Shown here: positions 36,503-64,000 of the stretch, piece after piece
Layout: every line of letters starts with the position of its first letter
How positions within the stretch are numbered: position 1 is the stretch's first letter
Origin: an uncultured bacterium
GTDB taxonomy: Bacteria > Hydrogenedentota > CAZGCA01 > CBFDCQ01
Length of the DNA stretch: 64,000 nt
Assembly (NCBI GenBank): GCA_965603355.1
Contig: CBFDCQ010000003.1
Location: forward strand, 20,802-84,801
Direction: 5' to 3'
Position numbers and translations under genes: made by a program
Notes under the pieces: model-generated
What the model saw: only the letters and a program-made list of their open reading frames with translations
What the model was told of the DNA's origin: nothing
The model's database searches: none

Positions 36503-36576
36503 TGGCTGGGGCGGGAGGACTCGAACCTCCAGTGCAGGATCCAAAGTCCTGTGTCTTGCCATTTGACGACGCCCCA
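36503..36576 (-). tRNA. tRNA-Gln (anticodon UUG), CCA encoded
   Basis: The reverse strand folds by hand into a 74-nt cloverleaf: acceptor TGGGGCG/CGCCCCA (U1:A72), anticodon arm CAGGA-CTTTGGA-TCCTG, T arm GGAGG-TTCGAGT-CCTCC, discriminator G, CCA. Confidence 0.9.
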
Positions 36577-49496: not shown

Positions 49497-52283
49497 ATGA
49501 GTGTGCTTTCCATAAGAGACGTTGGCAAAAAGTACAGGCTGCGGCGAGAGACACGCATGTTCACTAACGAGCTTGTGCGTCGCCTGCTGAGAAGACGTCA
49601 AACCGAGGAGTTCTGGGCGCTAAGGGACATAACATTCGACGTCGAAGCCGGAGAATCGTTGGGCATTATAGGGCCAAACGGTTCGGGCAAGAGCACTTTA
49701 CTGAGGATCATCGCAGGAGTCACGGAATGTACAGAAGGGGAGGTGTCGGTACAGGGTCGAGTCGCCTCGCTGCTGGAACTTGGCACCGGATTTCATCCGT
49801 ATCTGACGGGCCGCGAGAACGTTTACCTGAACGGCGCGATATTGGGGATAGAGAAGGAAGAGATAGAACGTAATTTCGGCAAAATCGAGGAGTTCGCTGG
49901 AATTGGACGATTCATAGACGTTCCTGTAAAAGACTACTCTTCGGGAATGTACGTGCGGCTGGCATTCGCCGTGGCAATTAATTCCGACCCGGACATCTTC
50001 CTCGTTGACGAGGTTCTCGCGGTGGGGGATGAGGAGTTCCAGCAGAGGTGTCGCGCAAAGATACGCGAGTTGCAGGGCTCCGGCAAGACCATCGTGTTCG
50101 TGTCGCACGACCTTAACATAGTGAACGAGCTGTGCGACAGAGTCATCCTCCTGCGTGAAGGAAGGATAATGGAGAAGGGGTCGGCTGAAAGAACGATAAA
50201 CTTCTACCTGCATACCATCGGCAAGCAAGAGGGAATTGCGTTCCTGAAAGCAGGTTCGCTCGAACTCATTTTCAATAACGGCAAGATCGCGCTTTTCAGT
50301 GACGGCCAGATGTTAACCAGAGCACACGGAGGGCACACCTCGGTCTTGTCGCGCGGGATTTGGTACGAATCCACGGGGGCAAACTGGCACGTCGAGACGT
50401 GCACCGACACGGAACTGGTAGCCACCGGCACGTACACGAGAATACCGGTCAGCCAGACGTGGCGGATCAAGCTTGAGGCACCGTCGACGGTGCTGTGGAA
50501 TGTGGAAATAGAGGCTGAGGCCGGTGCAGAAGTCAATGGGCGGCATGCGTCTCTGGTACTATCGACCTCGTATACGAAGTGGTTCACCGAGCTCAGAGAA
50601 AGCGAGTTTCCCAGAATAGATCCCGGCGATACGCGGTGGACACCGGTGTTTCAGCGTGACGAACACGTTAAGATCATAGGAGCGACGGCCGGCGAGGACG
50701 AAGCTGGACTTCCGTCTGTGTGCTGGGAGACGGATGACCGCGCACCGCTGAGTTCGCTCTTGGTGCTGAACAGCGACTACACCCTCAACTCCAGGGTGCT
50801 GCAGACCGTTGAATTACGTCCCGGCGACGTGCGTGAACTCTCGGCCGGCAAGGAACTCTTTGTCTCGGCCAGGATCGACCTCGGACAACCGTTGGAGCTC
50901 ATCCGAAAGCGCCTCAAGGAAGCCCGTCGCGAACGAAGGGCTATCCTGAAAAACGGCAACCTCAGTTTGGCGTTCGAAGAAGGCAGTTTCCGCCTGTTCC
51001 TGGACGACAGGGAAATAACAGGAGGGCATGGGGCGTACAGTTCCATCTTGTCTCGGGGAATGTGGATCGATTCGTCGACAGCGCAATGGCGTCTTGAGTC
51101 ACATTCGGACACTGAGCTGGTCGCAATAGGAATATCCAGAAGGATACCGATCTGCCAGATATGGCGGATCAAGTTGGAAAGCCCTACAGCCATTCGCTGG
51201 TCCGTCGAGATGGAGGTCCAAGATGATACCGTCGTGTCGCGGCGACATATCTCACTGATACTGCCCACCGAGTACACGAGATGGTTCACGGAAAAGGAGT
51301 CGGGCAAGTTCCCGACAATTCATCCTGATGAGACCGAATGGATACATTTGTCGCACCGGGACGAGCAGGTCAAGTTCATGGTGGCAGCACCTGAAGAGGT
51401 GGGGCCCGATTCGCCGGTGGTCTCGGTTGAGGCGGAGATGTTGGCGCCGAAGGTGGCTTTTCACGTGATAAACAGCAGCTATGCGCTCAATTCGAGAGTG
51501 TTACAGGTGCTGGAGCTGCACCCGGGAGATCACGAAGAACTTCTTCCCGGGAGGCAGTCGTTCGCTTCGGTAATGATACACCTGGACAGGTCCGAGGAGC
51601 TTGTCCAAGAACGGCTCACGGAAGTGTACCGAGGCACAATGGTGCGGGCAGGCAACCTCAATGCCGTGCTTGACAGGGGGAAGATCCGCCTTCTGTGGCG
51701 AGACAACGAGGTAACCCGAGACCGTTGCGTTTTCTTTTCAATCCGCAGCGGCGATCTGTGGGACGAGTCAGTGCAGGGGCGCTGGCGTGTTGAGCAAGTT
51801 TCTCCGAACGAATTGAGGGCGGCAGGAACGATGTTGAGGCTGCCCGTGGTCCAGGAATGGACGCTGAGAACGTGTGAGGACGGTACGCTCGAGTGGAAAA
51901 TCTGTCTCGACGTCAGAGAGAGGTTGCATGTTGAGGAGCTGGTCGTTAACGCGATGCTCTCGCCGGAATATGACGCTTGGGCAACCGCCCACGAATCAGG
52001 GGCTTTCCCGCCGTTCGCGCCGAGGATTGGTGAGTGGACGCACTTGGCCAAGGTGCTCAAGCCGGGCGCCTTTGCAGAGGCCGGATGCACAGATGTCGCC
52101 GGGAACCGCCCGCGCACGGTTCGCATCTCGTTCGAGGCGCCGTGGATAGCCATGGCAGCCAATGCCGGCAGCCTGGAAACGGCACGTGTGATACAGGGTG
52201 TGAAACAGTATCCGGAAGGCGCCGGTGTACTGGAGCCGGGACGGCATGAGGTCTTTTCTGCTAAGATACTATGTAATGAGTAG
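49497..52283 (+). CDS. wzt: Wzt/TagH-like ABC exporter ATPase with three tandem C-terminal modules (928 aa)
   Basis: Walker A GPNGSGKST, signature YSSGM, Walker B IFLVDE, then three collinear ~215-235-aa repeats. ATG 49497 lies 2 nt after the wzm stop. The upstream part of the 1129-aa track ORF overlaps wzm in another frame and is rejected. Confidence 0.85.
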   Translation: MSVLSIRDVGKKYRLRRETRMFTNELVRRLLRRRQTEEFWALRDITFDVEAGESLGIIGPNGSGKSTLLRIIAGVTECTEGEVSVQGRVASLLELGTGFHPYLTGRENVYLNGAILGIEKEEIERNFGKIEEFAGIGRFIDVPVKDYSSGMYVRLAFAVAINSDPDIFLVDEVLAVGDEEFQQRCRAKIRELQGSGKTIVFVSHDLNIVNELCDRVILLREGRIMEKGSAERTINFYLHTIGKQEGIAFLKAGSLELIFNNGKIALFSDGQMLTRAHGGHTSVLSRGIWYESTGANWHVETCTDTELVATGTYTRIPVSQTWRIKLEAPSTVLWNVEIEAEAGAEVNGRHASLVLSTSYTKWFTELRESEFPRIDPGDTRWTPVFQRDEHVKIIGATAGEDEAGLPSVCWETDDRAPLSSLLVLNSDYTLNSRVLQTVELRPGDVRELSAGKELFVSARIDLGQPLELIRKRLKEARRERRAILKNGNLSLAFEEGSFRLFLDDREITGGHGAYSSILSRGMWIDSSTAQWRLESHSDTELVAIGISRRIPICQIWRIKLESPTAIRWSVEMEVQDDTVVSRRHISLILPTEYTRWFTEKESGKFPTIHPDETEWIHLSHRDEQVKFMVAAPEEVGPDSPVVSVEAEMLAPKVAFHVINSSYALNSRVLQVLELHPGDHEELLPGRQSFASVMIHLDRSEELVQERLTEVYRGTMVRAGNLNAVLDRGKIRLLWRDNEVTRDRCVFFSIRSGDLWDESVQGRWRVEQVSPNELRAAGTMLRLPVVQEWTLRTCEDGTLEWKICLDVRERLHVEELVVNAMLSPEYDAWATAHESGAFPPFAPRIGEWTHLAKVLKPGAFAEAGCTDVAGNRPRTVRISFEAPWIAMAANAGSLETARVIQGVKQYPEGAGVLEPGRHEVFSAKILCNE

Positions 52284-52355
52284 GACTGTTGTTGTGACGG
52301 AGCATGATAGGCTTCCGAATCGGGGGAATAGGAATTGAACATAACATCGGAAAGA

Positions 52356-54263
52356 ATGAAGTCGGGTTTTCTGCGCTCTATTCGTAAGTGGGCAATCAGG
52401 AGTGGGCTGTCTTCGCTGATAGGCGAGAGCCGAATTGCCCACAAGCTGCGTCGAATGTACTACAGGAAGTTCCCGCTGCCGCGAGTGCGGCTGCCGGGCG
52501 ACCCGATCGTGCTCAAGACGCAGTACCCGGACGATAAGGAGCGATTCAGCGTGCTGCTCGTTCAGGTGCCGCTTCCCGGCAACGAACGGCACAAGAGGAT
52601 CATACCGCTGGGAATCTCCTACCTTGCATCGTACCTGATCGATAAGATGCCCGACGTGAACGTCGGCATTCTCGATGCTCAGGTGCAGAGCTTGAACTAT
52701 TGGGAGACGGTCACGAAGATCGCCGAGCGCAAGTGGGACGTCGTCGGGATAGGCTACTGGGCGGTGCAGGCACAGTTTGCGCGCAACGTGAGTCTGGCGA
52801 TCAAATCGCGGTGCCCGGACACCGTCGTCGTGCATGGCGGAGTACAGCCGACAGCGGTTCCGGAGGAGGCGCTGGAGTCGGCCGACTATCTCGTGTTGCA
52901 CGAGGGAGAGATCACGTTTCACGAGCTCATCAAGGCACTCAGAGAAGGAACGGATCCCTCTTCGATACGCGGTCTGGCATACAAGAGAGACGAACAGGTT
53001 GTAAGAACGGAGCCCAGGGAGTTCATTCAAGATCTGGACGTCCTGCCGTTTCCGGCGTGGCACCTCCTGCCGATCGAACAGTACAAGATGCCGCTGCACG
53101 TCGTCGGCGGCGATAGGATGCCTATTGTCGGGTCGCGCGGCTGTCCGTACGAATGTTCGTTCTGTGCGTCGCCTCTCATGTGGAAACGCCGCGTGAGGTG
53201 GCGCTCACCCGAGAACGTTGTGGCCGAGATGAAGGCGATGATCGAGCAGTACGGTATCAACTACTTCCACTTCTGGGACGACAACCTTACGCTCAAGCCG
53301 GATTACATCAGAGGTGTGTGCGATCGCATCATCGAGGGGGAGCTTGATGTCAAATGGATCGGCCTCGACCGATCCGAACATCTCAACAAACATCCTGAGC
53401 TGCTCGAGCTCATGAAAAGGGCCGGATGTGTCGGTATAGAGATAGGGATCGAGAGCGCCAATCCCGACACGCTGCTCCATATTCGAAAGAATCAGGGAGT
53501 CAACGAGAACCACATCGCACTGATGAACCAGAGAAAAGCGGGACTGTACCCGCTGTACACGTGCATGGCGTTCAATCCGGGCGAGTCGATCACGGGGTAC
53601 TATCTGCAAAGAGAGTTTCTCGACGAGGCTCAGGAGGGCTACCACTGGTACGAGCATTTTCACCCGTTCCCGTTTCCGCTGTACATGGGCCAGTTCTCCA
53701 CCCCGTACCCGGGCACGCGACTTCACGAGGAAGCACCCGATCTCGGTGTGGTGCTCCTCGACGATCCGGAAGAGCGGTTTCATCACAAGATCAATTTCGT
53801 GCCTGACTCGCTTCTGGAGGACGTGCCGACACGCACAATCCATCAGCTCGAAGCGCACCACTACTACCTGTATCTGCTTGCAACGTGGAGCGCGCTTTAT
53901 ACCGAGTTCAACATGCGCAACACCCGCGACGAACTTGCGCACAGACTCCATGATAGCTGGCGTTTTCTGAACGCGTACTTCGGCAGGTGCGAAGGCAGGT
54001 TTAGCGTCCGGCAGTTGGCCATACAGCTTGCCGAGTATCTGAATTTCAACTTCAACAAGAGCGTGCGGCTGGCGGCGTTCACTACGTATGTTTTTGGTCA
54101 GCTCGGCATAGTGCGGTCGGCTCTTTATCACACTGACCTGAAGATCGAGCCGAGATGCTTTGATATCCCCGGGGACCGTAAATGGCAGATCGTTGAGCTC
54201 CTGAACGATATGGGCGTCACGCCCAAGAGCATGGTGGTGGACTTCAGCCTGTATCCGGGCTGA
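52356..54263 (+). CDS. cobalamin(B12)-binding-domain radical SAM enzyme (class B) with ~250-aa C-terminal extension
   Basis: N-terminal B12-binding-like Rossmann (VLLVQVPLP..PLGISYLASYL..VVVHGG) followed by VGSRGCPYECSFCASP (CxxxCxxC). The start is uncertain (TTG 52335, ATG 52356 or a later ATG). Confidence 0.8.
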   Translation: MKSGFLRSIRKWAIRSGLSSLIGESRIAHKLRRMYYRKFPLPRVRLPGDPIVLKTQYPDDKERFSVLLVQVPLPGNERHKRIIPLGISYLASYLIDKMPDVNVGILDAQVQSLNYWETVTKIAERKWDVVGIGYWAVQAQFARNVSLAIKSRCPDTVVVHGGVQPTAVPEEALESADYLVLHEGEITFHELIKALREGTDPSSIRGLAYKRDEQVVRTEPREFIQDLDVLPFPAWHLLPIEQYKMPLHVVGGDRMPIVGSRGCPYECSFCASPLMWKRRVRWRSPENVVAEMKAMIEQYGINYFHFWDDNLTLKPDYIRGVCDRIIEGELDVKWIGLDRSEHLNKHPELLELMKRAGCVGIEIGIESANPDTLLHIRKNQGVNENHIALMNQRKAGLYPLYTCMAFNPGESITGYYLQREFLDEAQEGYHWYEHFHPFPFPLYMGQFSTPYPGTRLHEEAPDLGVVLLDDPEERFHHKINFVPDSLLEDVPTRTIHQLEAHHYYLYLLATWSALYTEFNMRNTRDELAHRLHDSWRFLNAYFGRCEGRFSVRQLAIQLAEYLNFNFNKSVRLAAFTTYVFGQLGIVRSALYHTDLKIEPRCFDIPGDRKWQIVELLNDMGVTPKSMVVDFSLYPG

Positions 54264-57773: not shown

Positions 57774-58636
57774 CAAGACCTCATTACTATCAGGAAGATC
57801 ACCGTTCGGGCTGGCAGTTCCGGGTCGGGATAACCCCTGGAGTGCGGCTGCTCCTGCTTGCGAACGCGATCGCCTTTGTGGCCGTGCTGTTGCTGCAGAG
57901 CATCCTGATGGTGGCCGCCAAAGGGTCCGGAATCTCGCTTGATTTCATACTGGGATTGAGTCGGCCGGGCGTTTTCCAGAAGTTCATGATTTGGCAGCCG
58001 CTCACATACCTGTTCGTTCACGGCGGCCTACTGCATCTCGTCTGGAACATGTTCGTTCTATGGATGTTCGGCGGCGATGTGGAGCGGACGTGGGGAACGC
58101 GGCGGTTCCTCTTCTTCTACTTTCTTACCGGGGTAGGTGCAGGTCTGTTCATCCTGCTGCTCAGCGGACCTCAAACGGTTACCATCGGCGCGTCCGGTGC
58201 AGTCCTTGGCGTGCTCGTGGCGTTCGCGATGCTTTTCCCGAACAGGCCCATCACGTTGCTGCTGTTCTTCGTGTTTCCTGTAACTCTCAAAGCGAAACAT
58301 CTCGCAATCGGCATTGCCGCGATCACGTTTCTTTCGCTGATTAGCCGCTCAGAGGGCGGTAATATATCGCATCTGGGGCATTTCGGCGGTATGGTCCTAG
58401 GATATCTGTACGTGAGGTACAGCGATACGACGCGGTCGCGATTCGACAATTTCGCGGGGAATATGGGCAGCGCTTCACGCGTCAGGACGCCGCGTGGCCA
58501 GAAACGGCAACCAGCGGACCGTTATTCACCCGAAAAAGTGGACGCCATACTGGACAAGATCGCCGCGCAAGGCATCGACTCGCTTACCGAGGAGGAAAGA
58601 GAGGTGCTCAAAAATGCCTCTTCCAGGATGCGATGA
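57770..58636 (+). CDS. rhomboid-family intramembrane serine protease with cytoplasmic C-terminal tail
   Basis: HLVWNMFVLWMFG, catalytic GASGAVLGVL and HFGGMVLGYL motifs. ATGA overlap with lepB. Confidence 0.85.
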   Translation: MTRPHYYQEDHRSGWQFRVGITPGVRLLLLANAIAFVAVLLLQSILMVAAKGSGISLDFILGLSRPGVFQKFMIWQPLTYLFVHGGLLHLVWNMFVLWMFGGDVERTWGTRRFLFFYFLTGVGAGLFILLLSGPQTVTIGASGAVLGVLVAFAMLFPNRPITLLLFFVFPVTLKAKHLAIGIAAITFLSLISRSEGGNISHLGHFGGMVLGYLYVRYSDTTRSRFDNFAGNMGSASRVRTPRGQKRQPADRYSPEKVDAILDKIAAQGIDSLTEEEREVLKNASSRMR

Positions 58637-58651
58637 GAAGGAGACAGGATA

Positions 58652-59239
58652 GTGAGCGAGGAGAGGTACTTCGTTCATCCATCGTCGCACGTCGACAGTG
58701 GCGCTTCGATCGGCGACGACACGCACGTGTGGCACTTCTGTCACGTGATGTCGGGCGCCAGGATCGGCCGCAACTGCGAGATCGGACAGAACGTATTCGT
58801 GGACCGGAACGTTGTCATAGGGGATAACGTCAAGATCCAGAATAACGTTTCTCTGTACGAAGGGGTGACGCTGGAGGACAGCGTTTTCGTCGCGACATCG
58901 ACCGTGTTCACAAACGAGTTGTCACCGCGCGCCGCGTTTCCTCGTCACAGAGAGGGCGGTTTCCAAAAGACGCTGGTGAAACGTGGCGCCACAATCGGCG
59001 CTAACGCGACAGTATTGTGCGGGACAACCGTCGGCGTGTACGCGTTCATAGGCGCCGGCGCCGTCCTTACACGCGACGCACCCGATCATGGTCTGATGAT
59101 GGGTGTGCCGGCGCGCGTCTCAGGGTGGGCGTGCGCGTGCGGCAGAAAGATTGTGTTCAACGAGCTGAATAAGGCGCGATGCGGCGCTTGCCGCAGAGAC
59201 TACGCCCGCGTCGCGGGCGAGGTCCGGGAGAAGAAGTAG
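58652..59239 (+). CDS. left-handed beta-helix (hexapeptide) sugar N-acetyltransferase, WbpD/WlbB-like
   Basis: 195 aa. FVHPSSHVDSGASIGDDTHVWHFCHVMSGARIG hexapeptide repeats and a Cys-rich C-terminus. GTG start with AAGGAG upstream. Confidence 0.8.
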   Translation: MSEERYFVHPSSHVDSGASIGDDTHVWHFCHVMSGARIGRNCEIGQNVFVDRNVVIGDNVKIQNNVSLYEGVTLEDSVFVATSTVFTNELSPRAAFPRHREGGFQKTLVKRGATIGANATVLCGTTVGVYAFIGAGAVLTRDAPDHGLMMGVPARVSGWACACGRKIVFNELNKARCGACRRDYARVAGEVREKK

Positions 59240-59301
59240 CCTTTCACCAGCCCGCTGCCTGACCTGGAGGGGCACGGGTAGACAGAAATGTCTGCCCCAC
59301 C
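59216..59301 (+). repeat. direct repeat, left copy (last 24 nt of the acetyltransferase CDS + 37 nt + REP hairpin)
   Basis: 51 nt are identical to 60739-60789, followed by a diverged REP hairpin (GGGTAGACAGAAATGTCTGCCCCACC, 59276-59301). Confidence 0.85.
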
Positions 59302-59317
59302 ATGAGACCGACCATTG

Positions 59318-60124
59318 CTACGGCTGCCCTTTCTGTGCAATTGTCCAGCAACCAGAGGATCGGTCGAATTCCAGAACGCGGTCACGCATGTACTGAAAAA
59401 GGAAAGCCTTATCGTACAACGATTCGTTCAATGGAGTAGTGACGTCTTCCCAACCGTTCAATTCCTCAGGGGATATTGTTCTTGAGGCTTGTGAGAGCAG
59501 TTCTCCGCTCACGATTAGCAGCCACAGCTCGTCCACATGCTCTGTCTTATAGTTTTTCGTCTTACGCACCTTCTCCTGGACGCGGGCTGGAAGGTCGCGC
59601 TCGGATGGACCAGCGAAGGCTACTCCAAGATTGTGGTTCCAAGTGGCGTCAAAACCCTTGTTCACAAGCTTGAGGGTCGTAAGATAGCGTGCTGATACAG
59701 GGTAGGCTGCTGAGTGCTCCGCGAGAGAGAGCACCCTCTTGTCTCCTCGTTCAGGACGCTGTGCCACGGAGAGGTTGACCAAGTCGTGGACGAATATCGC
59801 TCGCTCTTGAGGTCGGGGAAGTCGGAAATCCCTGAATTTCAGGTAGCCGTGCACGCCGCAAAGCCCTCTGTGCCCCCGCACCGCCTTCATCAGTTTCTCT
59901 AGGAGCCTGTTCAAGTCCTCTTCCATCGCGCGACGGGGGCGGCCGTTAGCGTCTGTGGCGTCCGAGTGGAACATGGTCGCTTCCAAGCCGATGCGACGCC
60001 CCTCCAGTGTCACGATAAAATCCGGACACTCGTCCTGCTCGATGGCCTCCGCACTCCACATCATTGCGTTCAAGAACTTATCTAGATAGAACCTCTCCTC
60101 TCTCTTTTGTCTCTCCCTTCCCAT
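59318..60124 (-). CDS. hypothetical protein (268 aa), possible PD-(D/E)xK-like nuclease fold
   Basis: Only evidence is an N-terminal pattern E..ECPDFIVTLEGRRIGLEATMF and a later hydrophobic strand DELWLLIVSG. Lies 15 nt downstream of the RAYT gene on the same strand. Confidence 0.5.
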   Translation of the reverse strand: MGRERQKREERFYLDKFLNAMMWSAEAIEQDECPDFIVTLEGRRIGLEATMFHSDATDANGRPRRAMEEDLNRLLEKLMKAVRGHRGLCGVHGYLKFRDFRLPRPQERAIFVHDLVNLSVAQRPERGDKRVLSLAEHSAAYPVSARYLTTLKLVNKGFDATWNHNLGVAFAGPSERDLPARVQEKVRKTKNYKTEHVDELWLLIVSGELLSQASRTISPEELNGWEDVTTPLNESLYDKAFLFQYMRDRVLEFDRSSGCWTIAQKGQP

Positions 60125-60139
60125 AGCTATGGCCCCCCG

Positions 60140-60694
60140 CTACTCTCCCCGGTTGGTGGGGCAGACATTCCTGTCTGCCACCTCTTTCATATACCAACCG
60201 TCGTACTGTAATGGGTCGTCAATCAACCCATACTTAAGTGGATTGTGCAACATGTATTGGAGTTTCTCCACGAACTCATCATTGTCGCGCATGATCCTGT
60301 CGTAGTACTCATCCTGCCAGACATGACCTTTAGTCCCTCTCTTCTCATTGAGCTTCCTGGCTGTGACACCCTTAATACCTTTCATAACCTGCGTCAGCGA
60401 TCTTGCAGGACCCGGGTACAGCAACATGTGAACATGGTCCGGCATGACCTGAACCGCGCGCAGCTCGTAGAACCGAGGGTCCCCGGAGCGAATGTGCTGC
60501 AGTACTAGTCGTCGCTCCTCCGCTGAGAGCTTGCCTGACTGCAGCCTGAAAGTCACAAAATAGGTCGCTCCAGGAAAGCGCCAGTGTGGGAGCCTGCGGC
60601 GCGTGATTCTTAGTCGGGGATCAGGCAAGGTTCTCTCGCTCCTCGTAGTCCTGACCTTGCGGTCAGGGACAGACAGGAATGTCTGCCCCACCAT
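60140..60694 (-). CDS. REP-associated tyrosine transposase (RAYT, IS200/IS605 Y1 HUH family)
   Basis: RRRLPHWRFPGATYFVTFRL, HUH motif PDHVHMLL, and catalytic Tyr region VWQDEYYDRIMRD..HNPLKYGL. Flanked by inverted REPs. Confidence 0.85.
   Translation of the reverse strand: MVGQTFLSVPDRKVRTTRSERTLPDPRLRITRRRLPHWRFPGATYFVTFRLQSGKLSAEERRLVLQHIRSGDPRFYELRAVQVMPDHVHMLLYPGPARSLTQVMKGIKGVTARKLNEKRGTKGHVWQDEYYDRIMRDNDEFVEKLQYMLHNPLKYGLIDDPLQYDGWYMKEVADRNVCPTNRGE
60155..60182. repeat. REP hairpin at the RAYT 3' end
   Basis: GGTGGGGCAGACATTCCTGTCTGCCACC. It is the reverse complement of the copy at 60666-60692. Confidence 0.8.
60666..60692. repeat. REP hairpin at the RAYT 5' end
   Basis: GGGACAGACAGGAATGTCTGCCCCACC. 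The first codons of the RAYT ORF (MVGQTFLSV) are encoded by it. Confidence 0.8.
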
Positions 60695-60738
60695 CAGATA
60701 TTATCATCTTAGTGCGTGATGATCCAACTTGCGTGGCC

Positions 60739-60824
60739 GGCGAGGTCCGGGAGAAGAAGTAGCCTTTCACCAGCCCGCTGCCTGACCTGAAGCGGCACGG
60801 GCAGACAGGAATGTCCACCCCACT
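60739..60824 (+). repeat. direct repeat, right copy (relic acetyltransferase 3' end + degenerate REP)
   Basis: Retains codons for AGEVREKK-stop plus downstream sequence. The REP is degraded (GGGCAGACAGGAATGTCCACCCCAC). Confidence 0.85.
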
Positions 60825-60972
60825 GTCTAATCTCCTCGGATATGATACCAGGAGCAAAACTGATGGGACAGACCTTCCCTCGTGAGCGAGGTCCGGGAAA
60901 AAGAGTGATTGTCTTTCCCCGCGCCCGTTTCAAAGACCTTGTCGTTCTCAAGCTGCAGTAGTTGGGGACGCC

Positions 60973-61479
60973 TTACTTGCGCTGGCCGCCCCCGCCGAGG
61001 CCTTTTGCCTGTGGTCGTGCCTGCTTGCCTTTGCCGCCCCCGCCGAGGCCTTTTGCCTGTGGTCGCGCCTGCTTGCCTTTGCCGCCGCCTTTCGCCGGTG
61101 CTCCCAGTTGCTTGCCCTTACCGCGACCGGGTTGTTGTCTCGCGAGCTGTTTGGGCGGGAATTTCTTCATGTAGCGCGTATGGTTGCGCCAGGGTCTGTT
61201 GTTGCCAGGCCTTATGACCACGTGTCTGTGTCCGGAGGTCAATCTAGCAGGACGCCTGTTGACGACAACCCACTGGCCGCCCCGGAAAACAGTGTATGTG
61301 CCGAGATCGCGGCACCAGTAGATCTCGACGTCCGGGTAGTAGTGGTAAACGTGTTGCACGCGGCGGCCGCGAGCCCGCGCGTGCGGTGGCGGACCCGGCC
61401 GGGGGTAGTGGTGATGTACCGTCTCGCATCCCGTAAGAACCGCGATAAGCAGCACTGAAATCAGGTATCTCATTGTCAT
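60973..61479 (-). CDS. hypothetical lipoprotein with His/Tyr/Pro-rich core and Gly/Lys-rich repeat tail
   Basis: MTMRYLISVLLIAVLTGC lipobox. The C-terminus has GGGKGKQARPQAKGLG x2 plus a degenerate copy. Confidence 0.5.
   Translation of the reverse strand: MTMRYLISVLLIAVLTGCETVHHHYPRPGPPPHARARGRRVQHVYHYYPDVEIYWCRDLGTYTVFRGGQWVVVNRRPARLTSGHRHVVIRPGNNRPWRNHTRYMKKFPPKQLARQQPGRGKGKQLGAPAKGGGKGKQARPQAKGLGGGGKGKQARPQAKGLGGGGQRK
60985..61128. repeat. 48-bp tandem repeat (2 near-perfect copies + 1 degenerate) inside the lipoprotein gene
   Basis: GCCGCCCCCGCCGAGGCCTTTTGCCTGTGGTCGyGCCTGCTTGCCTTT occurs at 60985 and 61033. The third unit is diverged. Confidence 0.8.
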
Positions 61480-63159: not shown

Positions 63160-64000
63160 CTATTTTCTGACAAACACCTTGCCGGGCAACTGTCGCGCAA
63201 GACCCTTAAGCTCGAGCATCGTGAGAGCGCTCATGGTGTCCGCCGCGGACACCGCGCAGCCATCCGCAATTCTGTCAATGTGAAGAGGTTCCTCGCTCAG
63301 CGACCCGAGTATCCTCCCCTCAACGTCTGATAACTTAATATCCGGGTGGCCGGAGGGAGTGGGTGTGGAGGCTGCCGCCATCGCCACCTCACGTTCGATC
63401 TCGAGATGCCCCTCAATTTCCTCGATTATGTCGTTGGCGGTCTCCGTCAGTTTCGCCCCGTCTTTTATGAGCGAATGAGGCCCGTTTGTTCTGAAAGAGT
63501 TGACATTTCCGGGCACCGCGAACACCTCACGCCCCTGTTCCGAGGCGTACCTGGCGGTAATGAGCGCGCCGCTGCGGCTGTCGCCCTCAACCACGACGGT
63601 CCCCAAAGTCAGGCCGCTTATGATCCTGTTTCTTCTCGGGAAATTGCCTCCGCGCGCCGGACAACCCATCGGGAACTCCGAGATCACGCCGCCGCCGGAG
63701 ATGATCTGTTCCATAAGTTTTCGGTTCCCGGAAGGATAAACGACGTCAACACCGCCGCCAAGCACGGCTATCGTCCTTCCTCCCGCGTTCAGAGCGCCTC
63801 GGTGCGCCGCGGTGTCTATACCCTCCGCCATACCGCTGACGACCGTTACACCCTGCTGTGCCAGCTCGCCTGCGAGACGCTCGGCAACCTCCTTGCCGTA
63901 CATTGACGCCCGGCGCGTGCCGACTATGGCCACGCTGTTCTTGTCCCGTTCGAGCAGCTCCCCGCGCACATAGAGCAGGATAGGCGGTTCATAGATCTCC
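63160..64000 (-). CDS. dprA: DNA-processing protein DprA/Smf; N-terminus lies beyond the window end
   Basis: AIVGTRRASMYGKEVAERLAGELAQQGVTVVSGMAEGIDTAAHRGAL Rossmann core and C-terminal winged-helix-like part. The frame stays open through 64000 (..EIYEPPILLYVRGELL). Confidence 0.85.
   Translation of the reverse strand, partial: EIYEPPILLYVRGELLERDKNSVAIVGTRRASMYGKEVAERLAGELAQQGVTVVSGMAEGIDTAAHRGALNAGGRTIAVLGGGVDVVYPSGNRKLMEQIISGGGVISEFPMGCPARGGNFPRRNRIISGLTLGTVVVEGDSRSGALITARYASEQGREVFAVPGNVNSFRTNGPHSLIKDGAKLTETANDIIEEIEGHLEIEREVAMAAASTPTPSGHPDIKLSDVEGRILGSLSEEPLHIDRIADGCAVSAADTMSALTMLELKGLARQLPGKVFVRK

Follow-up and report, generated by a model that had tools for sequence, protein, structure and literature searches.

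A RAYT gene with a conserved partner gene in a REPtron-like locus of an uncultured member of the Hydrogenedentota

REPtrons reportedly consist of a gene for a REP-associated tyrosine transposase (RAYT, also TnpA-REP) that is flanked by its cognate repetitive extragenic palindromes (REPs; Ton-Hoang et al. 2012; Nunvar et al. 2010; Bertels & Rainey 2011). In the IS200/IS605 family of insertion sequences, e.g. IS608 and ISDra2, tnpA and tnpB are located between subterminal hairpins. Integrative elements such as e14 or phage 21 in icd, as well as islands in tRNA genes, supply the gene that they target with a replacement 3' end, while bacterial interspersed mosaic elements (BIMEs) are tandem arrays of REP doublets in Escherichia coli. 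To our knowledge, RAYTs count as single genes that have been domesticated, are immobile and mobilise only REPINs, i.e. inverted doublets of REPs. In this study, we analysed a locus within 64,000 nt of DNA from an uncultured bacterium of the Hydrogenedentota (contig CBFDCQ010000003.1, positions 20,802 to 84,801; hereafter the window), in which a RAYT gene and a co-oriented partner ('cargo') gene lie between direct repeats that contain the end of a neighbouring acetyltransferase gene.

REPtrons are held not to transpose as units (PMC6006769) and RAYTs to be single-copy and vertically inherited (PMC5581495). A duplication of gene ends is not described in a study on REP evolution (PMC3686654). Based on the comparison with related lineages, we conclude that the locus is a variant of a REPtron with a conserved partner gene. 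With moderate confidence, we regard it as a long-resident REPtron-like locus, whose repeats are by-products of REP-cluster dynamics and neither att sites nor target-site duplications. The RAYT and its partner may plausibly move together.

Layout and age of the locus

The locus has the following features, with C1 to C3 denoting the copies of the acetyltransferase gene end.

58652-59239, plus strand: gene of a WbpD-like hexapeptide N-acetyltransferase (195 aa; Pfam Hexapep, 6.3e-24), its last ~37 nt being the source of the repeated gene end (C1)
59208-59300, plus strand: left direct repeat, with gene end C1 (to 59239), the post-stop segment (37 nt, containing a degenerate hairpin A) and REP1 (59277-59301)
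59318-60124, minus strand: partner ('cargo') gene encoding 268 aa, from an uncharacterised family in which E10, D35 and K185 are invariant and a PD..E signature is present
60140-60628, minus strand: RAYT gene, probable 162-aa form from TTG 60628 (maximal open reading frame (ORF) to ATG 60694)
60155-60179, minus strand: inverted REP within the RAYT gene's 3' end, coding for ..ADRNVCPT.. and free of mismatches to the consensus; DNA hairpin with z = -4.6
60650-60692, plus strand: hairpin A and REPa, a two-hairpin unit upstream of the RAYT gene and direct-repeat partner of the unit at 59259-59301
60693-60730, plus strand: spacer taking the place of the REPIN spacer seen here in the sister species L099 (42% identity to L099 at this position)
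60731-60823, plus strand: right direct repeat, with gene-end copy C2, 37 nt and a decayed REPb (60800-60824)
60825-60878, plus strand: REPIN spacer with a truncated inverted REP, TGATGGGACAGACCTTCC, at its end (15/18 match to the inverted REP, p ~ 0.001)
60878-60909, plus strand: gene-end copy C3, the third and decayed copy (..LVSEVREKE*, TGA stop)
60973-61479, minus strand: convergent gene of a Gly/Lys-rich lipoprotein, right border of the inserted region, adjoining the acetyltransferase gene in empty sites

The two direct repeats (59208-59300 and 60731-60823) are 93 nt long, 91% identical and offset by 1523 nt. Their core (59216-59266 = 60739-60789) is identical in 51/51 positions, a match obtained 0 times in 100 shuffles, and the eight mismatches of the pair (59212, 59215, 59267, 59270, 59279, 59286, 59293 and 59294) are all located at the edges. 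An earlier note on this stretch, made from its letters, had reported direct repeats of ~86 bp (51 nt identical, offset 1523), each comprising the last codons and stop of the acetyltransferase gene (AGEVREKK*), 37 nt and a REP hairpin, with a 268-aa gene and a RAYT gene between them. This description was confirmed, with the repeats measured as 93 nt, the 268-aa gene being without annotation and the RAYT bona fide. The locus is found with 99.8-100% identity on more than 20 independently assembled metagenome contigs and is therefore not an assembly artefact. All of these contigs of the window lineage are filled, no variant without the RAYT-partner module being seen among them, and tandem double copies of the two genes were seen in no contig. 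A Logan contig ending at 59245 was considered as an empty-site variant and rejected; it matches a k = 31 unitig break at the repeat start (59216), with the k value and the assembler behaviour being inferred.

The RAYT protein scores 89.6 bits with the NCBIfam model NF047646 (cutoff 80), is also matched by Pfam Y1_Tnp and contains the motifs HVHML and QYMLHNP. Matches in the Protein Data Bank (PDB) are ISDra2 TnpA and TnpA-REP of E. coli (4er8, E = 4.8e-5, residues 17-138). The gene is present in a single copy in the window. Its likely start is TTG 60628, since most contigs have the 162-aa form as their gene call and an ATG at the REP is missing from L099. The earlier note had let the ORF begin and end within inverted hairpins, which applies to the 3' end, where the overlap is conserved, but at the 5' end only to the maximal ORF from ATG 60694.

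The REP sequence GGCAGACAGGAATGTCTGCCCCACC occurs four times in the 64 kb, at 59277(+), 60155(-), 60668(+) and 60800(+), where 0 occurrences are expected by chance; all are part of the locus and none was found in the remaining ~62 kb of the window. The RAYT gene is flanked by two of these cognate REPs, REP(-) at 60155-60179 and REP(+) at 60668-60692, which have 24-nt arms with 100% complementarity and both fold as hairpins. Hairpin A (CCTGACC-TTGC-GGTCAGG) is perfect and followed by the REP stem-loop, with the pair folding at z = -3.6. Versions of hairpin A located after gene ends are degenerate, and REPb (60800) folds no better than shuffles. The inverted REP within the 3' end of the RAYT gene is also kept in L099 and in two other lineages, L102 and L314.

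In every lineage examined, the C-terminus of the RAYT reads through the inverted REP (..AD[RKN]NVCPT.., 60140-60185, minus strand), which is a DNA hairpin and a conserved coding sequence at once. The 22-nt core of the REP, CAGACAGGAATGTCYRCCCCAC, was found unchanged in metagenome-assembled genomes (MAGs) of many phyla (Planctomycetota, Latescibacterota, Hydrogenedentes, Gemmatimonadota, Acidobacteriota, Lentisphaerae and others), mostly in REPINs. The breadth of this conservation is unusual for a REP sequence.

Empty sites were found in two related lineages. L224 shares the gene order of the window (signal peptidase (S26), rhomboid, acetyltransferase) and has an orthologous acetyltransferase with 84% aa identity, the stop of which is followed by a 36-nt spacer and the stop of the convergent Gly/Lys-rich gene. 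In L316 (82% aa identity), a spacer of 33 nt precedes the convergent Gly/Lys-rich gene. The two spacers align with each other. Compared to these spacers of 33-36 nt, ~1.73 kb (59240-60972) are extra in the window, in agreement with the reading of the segment as inserted DNA in the earlier note. That note had also proposed to look for an empty site with a single REP; neither of the empty sites features a REP, a RAYT gene, a partner gene or a single copy of the repeat.

The closest relative is the sister species L099/L100, with left flanking genes that are 91% identical to those of the window, while L224 is an outgroup to both. L099 is collinear with the window across 58604-60909, showing the gene end, a REP, the partner gene, the inverted REP and RAYT gene, hairpin A with REP, and two further gene-end copies. 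Both module genes are intact in L099 and under purifying selection. The RAYT has an aa identity of 79% to its L099 counterpart (dS 0.74-0.76, dN/dS 0.19) and the partner of 65% (dS 0.57-0.60, dN/dS 0.37-0.39). The collinearity with intact module genes indicates that the arrangement is older than the split of the window species and L099. The earlier note had regarded an ancestral and syntenic RAYT and cargo as incompatible with its insertion reading; this state is found in the closest relative, L099, and not in more distant ones. Ten credible background genes gave dS values of 0.18-0.65 against L099, so that the module values (0.57-0.76) are at the upper end of, or slightly above, this range. 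The module shows no GC anomaly, and a separate history of the module, which its high dS might have suggested, was unsupported after these ten genes had been measured.

Copies of the acetyltransferase gene end

Homologues of the acetyltransferase are named UDP-2-acetamido-3-amino-2,3-dideoxy-glucuronate N-acetyltransferase in several sources, including JGI. The tail of the protein (..[AG]G[EQ]VRE..) is kept in orthologues with 69-87% identity and can still be recognised in homologues at a greater distance. The tail is thus native to the acetyltransferase family, indicating that the downstream copies derive from the gene and not the reverse. The candidate explanation that the gene tail was captured from a repeat element was rejected on this basis.

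The earlier note had pictured two copies of the gene end and missed C3 (60878-60909), which is in frame with its own stop. Allowing for up to 8 mismatches, the 31-nt gene end was found at three places only in the window and at 0 in shuffles. Three copies are present in both the window species and L099, in which the position of C3 is kept. That C3 might be left over from an ATGA overlap between WbpD and DegT genes was considered and dropped, as the downstream frame has no DegT-like N-terminus.

In the window, C1 and C2 are identical in 51/51 positions, whereas the values in L099 are 39/51 (76%); either window copy matches either L099 copy in 42-44/52 positions. With an identical layout, an intact module and diverged copies in L099, the repeats do not qualify as insertion junctions, as which one of the two readings in the earlier note had taken them. 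A non-coding copy of this age cannot have kept 51/51 positions in common with the live gene end by chance. Since the layout predates the split, the identity of C1 and C2 in the window lineage appears to be best explained by a recent gene conversion of C2 by C1. A 3-nt deletion relative to the live gene is common to L099 C2, L099 C3 and window C3 and absent from window C2, which fits a common origin of the downstream copies and a later conversion of window C2.

The old downstream copies are preceded by the first 18 nt of an inverted REP (15/18, p ~ 0.001), located after a REPIN spacer of ~36 nt. Both downstream copies of L099 and C3 of the window are each fused to such an inverted REP, truncated in its loop. 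The 3' part of the spacer had been taken into consideration as an extension of the acetyltransferase coding homology, which was rejected because no coding similarity was found and the truncated inverted REP was found instead. The unit of REP, spacer, half REP and gene end has a period of 144 nt in L099 and of 132-146 nt in the window, in which the first REPIN spacer is swapped for 38-46 nt of unrelated sequence. This stretch between REPa and C2 (60693-60730) has no significant similarity to other parts of the locus.

Taken together, the history of a long-resident REPtron-like locus could be reconstructed as follows. A module of the RAYT gene and its co-oriented partner, bracketed by direct two-hairpin REP units, would have entered the spacer of ~35 nt between two convergent genes. 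A copy of ~60-80 nt, consisting of the gene end, the post-stop segment and hairpin A, would then have been inserted in the REPIN next to the RAYT gene, within its inverted REP, presumably through an illegitimate or template-switch junction at the hairpin. The resulting unit of REP, spacer, half REP and gene end may have been duplicated in tandem (period ~132-146 nt), plausibly by unequal exchange between direct copies of hairpin A/REP. In the window lineage, the live gene end would recently have converted C2, which would have given the near-perfect 93-nt repeat.

The partner gene and mobility of the pair

Searches with the partner protein in Pfam, NCBIfam, PADLOC, PHROGs, a PDB sequence profile and Foldseek (PDB, BFVD) yielded nothing significant, and single marginal AHJR-like and REase_II matches of hidden Markov models were obtained among 94 members of its family. 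The family is large in a profile search, with 1121 representatives at E <= 1e-3 and 78 at E <= 1e-30; close homologues are scarce (four non-identical ones in a word-indexed search). An AlphaFold (AF2) model based on 94 sequences has a predicted local distance difference test score (pLDDT) of 93.8. Weak sub-threshold Foldseek matches of the partner are Hjc resolvases, an R2 restriction-like endonuclease (RLE), VRR-NUC and PD-(D/E)xK proteins or restriction endonucleases. Three residues of the family (E10, D35 and K185) do not vary, and two (P34 and E48) hardly do. The core of the predicted structure is possibly a PD-(D/E)xK-like nuclease, which we consider a lead rather than a finding.

Distant homologues of the partner occur without RAYT or REP, and none was found on plasmids or phages. 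In a Sedimentisphaerales MAG, the gene of one family member with 30% identity (L228, 3968-4795) is the only one between proB and proA, without RAYT or REP. The partner family may be sporadically inserted on its own.

Two or more further genomic contexts contain the RAYT-partner pair (L102, L101), and L314, a third lineage, has it at the same locus. In L314, the pair is located beside the same Gly/Lys-rich gene, with identities of 72% for the RAYT and 47-49% for the partner. The two genes overlap by 4 nt, and the module is bounded by an identical direct repeat of 43 nt, which consists of REP and hairpin A. The side of the Gly/Lys-rich gene features a full inverted REP and no gene-end copy, which indicates that the copies are not an obligatory product of insertion. 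In L315, a RAYT with 87% identity is followed by the N-terminus of a partner. In L102, the pair adjoins a DUF2961-like gene and has a unit of hairpin A and REP at its left, while a relic of the acetyltransferase end upstream of the module was not significant (p = 0.2). In L101, it adjoins a gene of unassigned function. The earlier note had treated RAYT and cargo as a linked unit, and they indeed form a conserved pair in L099, L314, L102 and L101. The pairing is restricted to a small clade; a gene of the partner family within 5 kb was found at 0/80 loci with more distant RAYTs and at 0/117 loci with the same REP. A general linkage of the cargo family to RAYTs was rejected based on these 0/197 RAYT or REP loci and on the distant homologues without RAYT.

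The presence/absence pattern is compatible with a pair that moves as a unit, and also with losses and synteny erosion. Among the alternatives to a resident locus, an IS200/IS605-like composite survives best. It would consist of cargo and RAYT between two copies of hairpin A plus REP, move by single-strand peel-and-paste with precise excision, and leave the gene-end copies as unrelated rearrangements. The 43-nt repeat that bounds the L314 module is in line with this, as are the equivalent units at 59259-59301, at 60650-60692 and at the left of L102, and the 4-nt overlap of RAYT and cargo in L314, which is operon-like. The pair adjoins an acetyltransferase gene, a DUF2961-like gene and a gene of unassigned function, the empty sites are clean and alignable with each other, and the partners of L101 and L102 are closer to that of the window (53-56%) than the partner of L314 from the same locus (49%). 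However, the module is single-copy in the window and near-identical copies were found nowhere, the nearest non-orthologous modules having cargo identities of 53-62%; the IS model fails because of this copy number. Moreover, synteny loss could account for the differing neighbours, the protein passes the RAYT model and does not look like a typical IS200 TnpA, the cargo family is absent from the 197 other RAYT or REP loci and has relatives without RAYT, and REPtrons are held not to transpose as units (PMC6006769). We consider such a composite unlikely.

A related view is that RAYT and partner make up an element of two genes between REPs, which is still mobile as a whole, i.e. an IS605-like combination of 'tnpA + accessory nuclease' with a RAYT as its basis. 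Short spacers between convergent genes would be its insertion sites and its excision would be precise, with the gene-end copies as traces of aberrant co-mobilisation of flanking host DNA. We regard this as rather doubtful.

It is improbable that the locus is an integrative circular element with RAYT and cargo that carries an acetyltransferase end and integrates in a Campbell-type manner, with the repeats as attL/attR and C3 as the scar of an earlier round. Filled and empty sites exist among relatives, the module occurs in other contexts, and direct repeats with a gene end flank cargo and RAYT. The junction of half REP and gene end could be a circle junction and the perfect 51-nt core could mean recent cycling. 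Nevertheless, the repeats enclose no integrase but only the genes of the RAYT and of an unannotated 268-aa protein, and HUH Y1 enzymes are not known to act in this way (PMC6006769). The layout is older than the species split, and the L099 repeats are 76% identical although both genes are intact. The right repeat, which the earlier note took for the module boundary, lies beyond REPa and a 46-nt spacer. L314 has no gene-end copy on the Gly/Lys side, L102 no relic of the acetyltransferase end (p = 0.2), the empty sites no REP or repeat, and all of the more than 20 contigs are filled. An att-type model fails because there is neither an integrase nor an empty site with only one copy of the repeat. 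As for the element of the earlier note that carries a replacement 3' end, its support is weak.

A tandem duplication of the 1523-bp segment with subsequent REP-REP recombination, deleting most of the second copy, would find direct REPs for the deletion and an offset of one unit, but is highly improbable, as it requires two ad hoc steps and explains neither the half-REP/gene-end junctions and the third copy nor the identical layout of L099 with its diverged repeats.

Several observations weigh against a long-resident locus with repeats from REP-cluster dynamics. The presence/absence pattern needs at least two events, and a filled L314 close to an empty L316 is not predicted by a static resident locus: the Gly/Lys-rich protein of L314 is nearer to that of L316 (69%) than to that of the window (63%). 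The RAYT dS of 0.74-0.76 is slightly above the top background gene (0.65), making an allelic replacement of the module possible. Comparison of the post-stop segments with the native spacers of L224 and L316 mostly yielded p > 0.1, and the best values (0.012-0.013) fail a correction for multiple tests. The likeness of hairpin A and the post-stop segment to these spacers is not robust and does not demonstrate homology, so that more than one of the copies may be the 'original'. The steps behind the first downstream copy are inferred from junction anatomy alone, and no intermediate state was found among the loci compared. Selection keeping C1 and C2 identical is possible instead of neutral conversion.

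With respect to the surroundings of the locus, orthologues of the acetyltransferase with 75-78% identity (L222, L225) have a gene stop that overlaps (ATGA) the start of a DegT-family aminotransferase gene, which is the classic WbpD-WbpE pairing. In the window lineage, the acetyltransferase gene sits after those of a signal peptidase and a rhomboid protein, and no aminotransferase gene is located downstream. The gene of the Gly/Lys-rich lipoprotein contains a 48-nt tandem repeat (60985-61086; 2.1 copies, 98% matches), and its C-terminus varies in length and sequence between relatives (..GGGGQRK*, ..GKGGGK*, ..GRGKGRGK*). An Rfam scan of the region yielded no known RNA at E <= 1, and a promoter/terminator scan was uninformative. 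The sole tRNA gene in the window is a tRNA-Gln (ttg) at 36503-36576 on the minus strand. The ORFs 52269-53099(-) and 63346-63906(+), which are antisense to real genes and show dN/dS > 1.6 against L099/L100, are almost certainly not genes.

Comparison with known systems

The RAYT-partner module is the most interesting residue of the analysis. A RAYT with a conserved and selected partner in a REP-bounded unit, which is variably present and found beside different genes, is a candidate for testing the mobility of REPtrons. The partner represents a large unannotated family with a confidently predicted fold and no solved relative. If the pair does move as a unit, this would contradict the view of REPtrons as never transposing and provide a first role for an unannotated family with more than 1000 members. 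The triplication of the gene end suggests that REP clusters can copy adjacent coding sequence. Furthermore, gene conversion can give old repeats the look of fresh insertion scars, which calls for caution with 'target duplications' deduced from a single genome.

Compared to BIMEs, the locus also has REP units in tandem beside a gene end, with a period of ~130-150 nt. However, its unit includes coding sequence of the adjacent gene, and only two units are present.

As in integrative elements with a replacement gene end, a direct repeat of a gene 3' end brackets the inserted DNA and the gene stays intact. The window differs by having no tyrosine or serine integrase, by repeats that are diverged in the sister species, by three copies instead of two and by a right copy that is located off the element boundary.

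With members of the IS200/IS605 family, the locus shares a Y1 HUH enzyme and one accessory gene, and either end of the unit carries similar hairpins on the same strand. A precise single-strand mechanism of excision and insertion would be in line with the empty sites, which are clean and lack a target duplication, although the junctions of the empty sites are not alignable to the filled sites with significance. In contrast to this family, the accessory gene is unrelated to TnpB/IscB, and the enzyme scores as a RAYT without multiple or near-identical copies.

The REPtron is the system of which the locus is a variant. Both feature a single-copy Y1 HUH gene, here passing the RAYT model, which is flanked by inverted cognate REPs with a REPIN alongside. 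The locus was inherited vertically between sister species, and the same REP forms REPINs in many MAGs of Planctomycetota, Latescibacterota and others. It differs from a REPtron in the absence of dispersed REPs from the other ~62 kb of the window, in the direct orientation of its outer REP units, which contain a second hairpin, and in a REP cluster that includes copies of the end of a neighbouring gene. Also, presence and absence vary among related lineages, and a conserved, co-oriented partner gene is located inside the REP-bounded unit.

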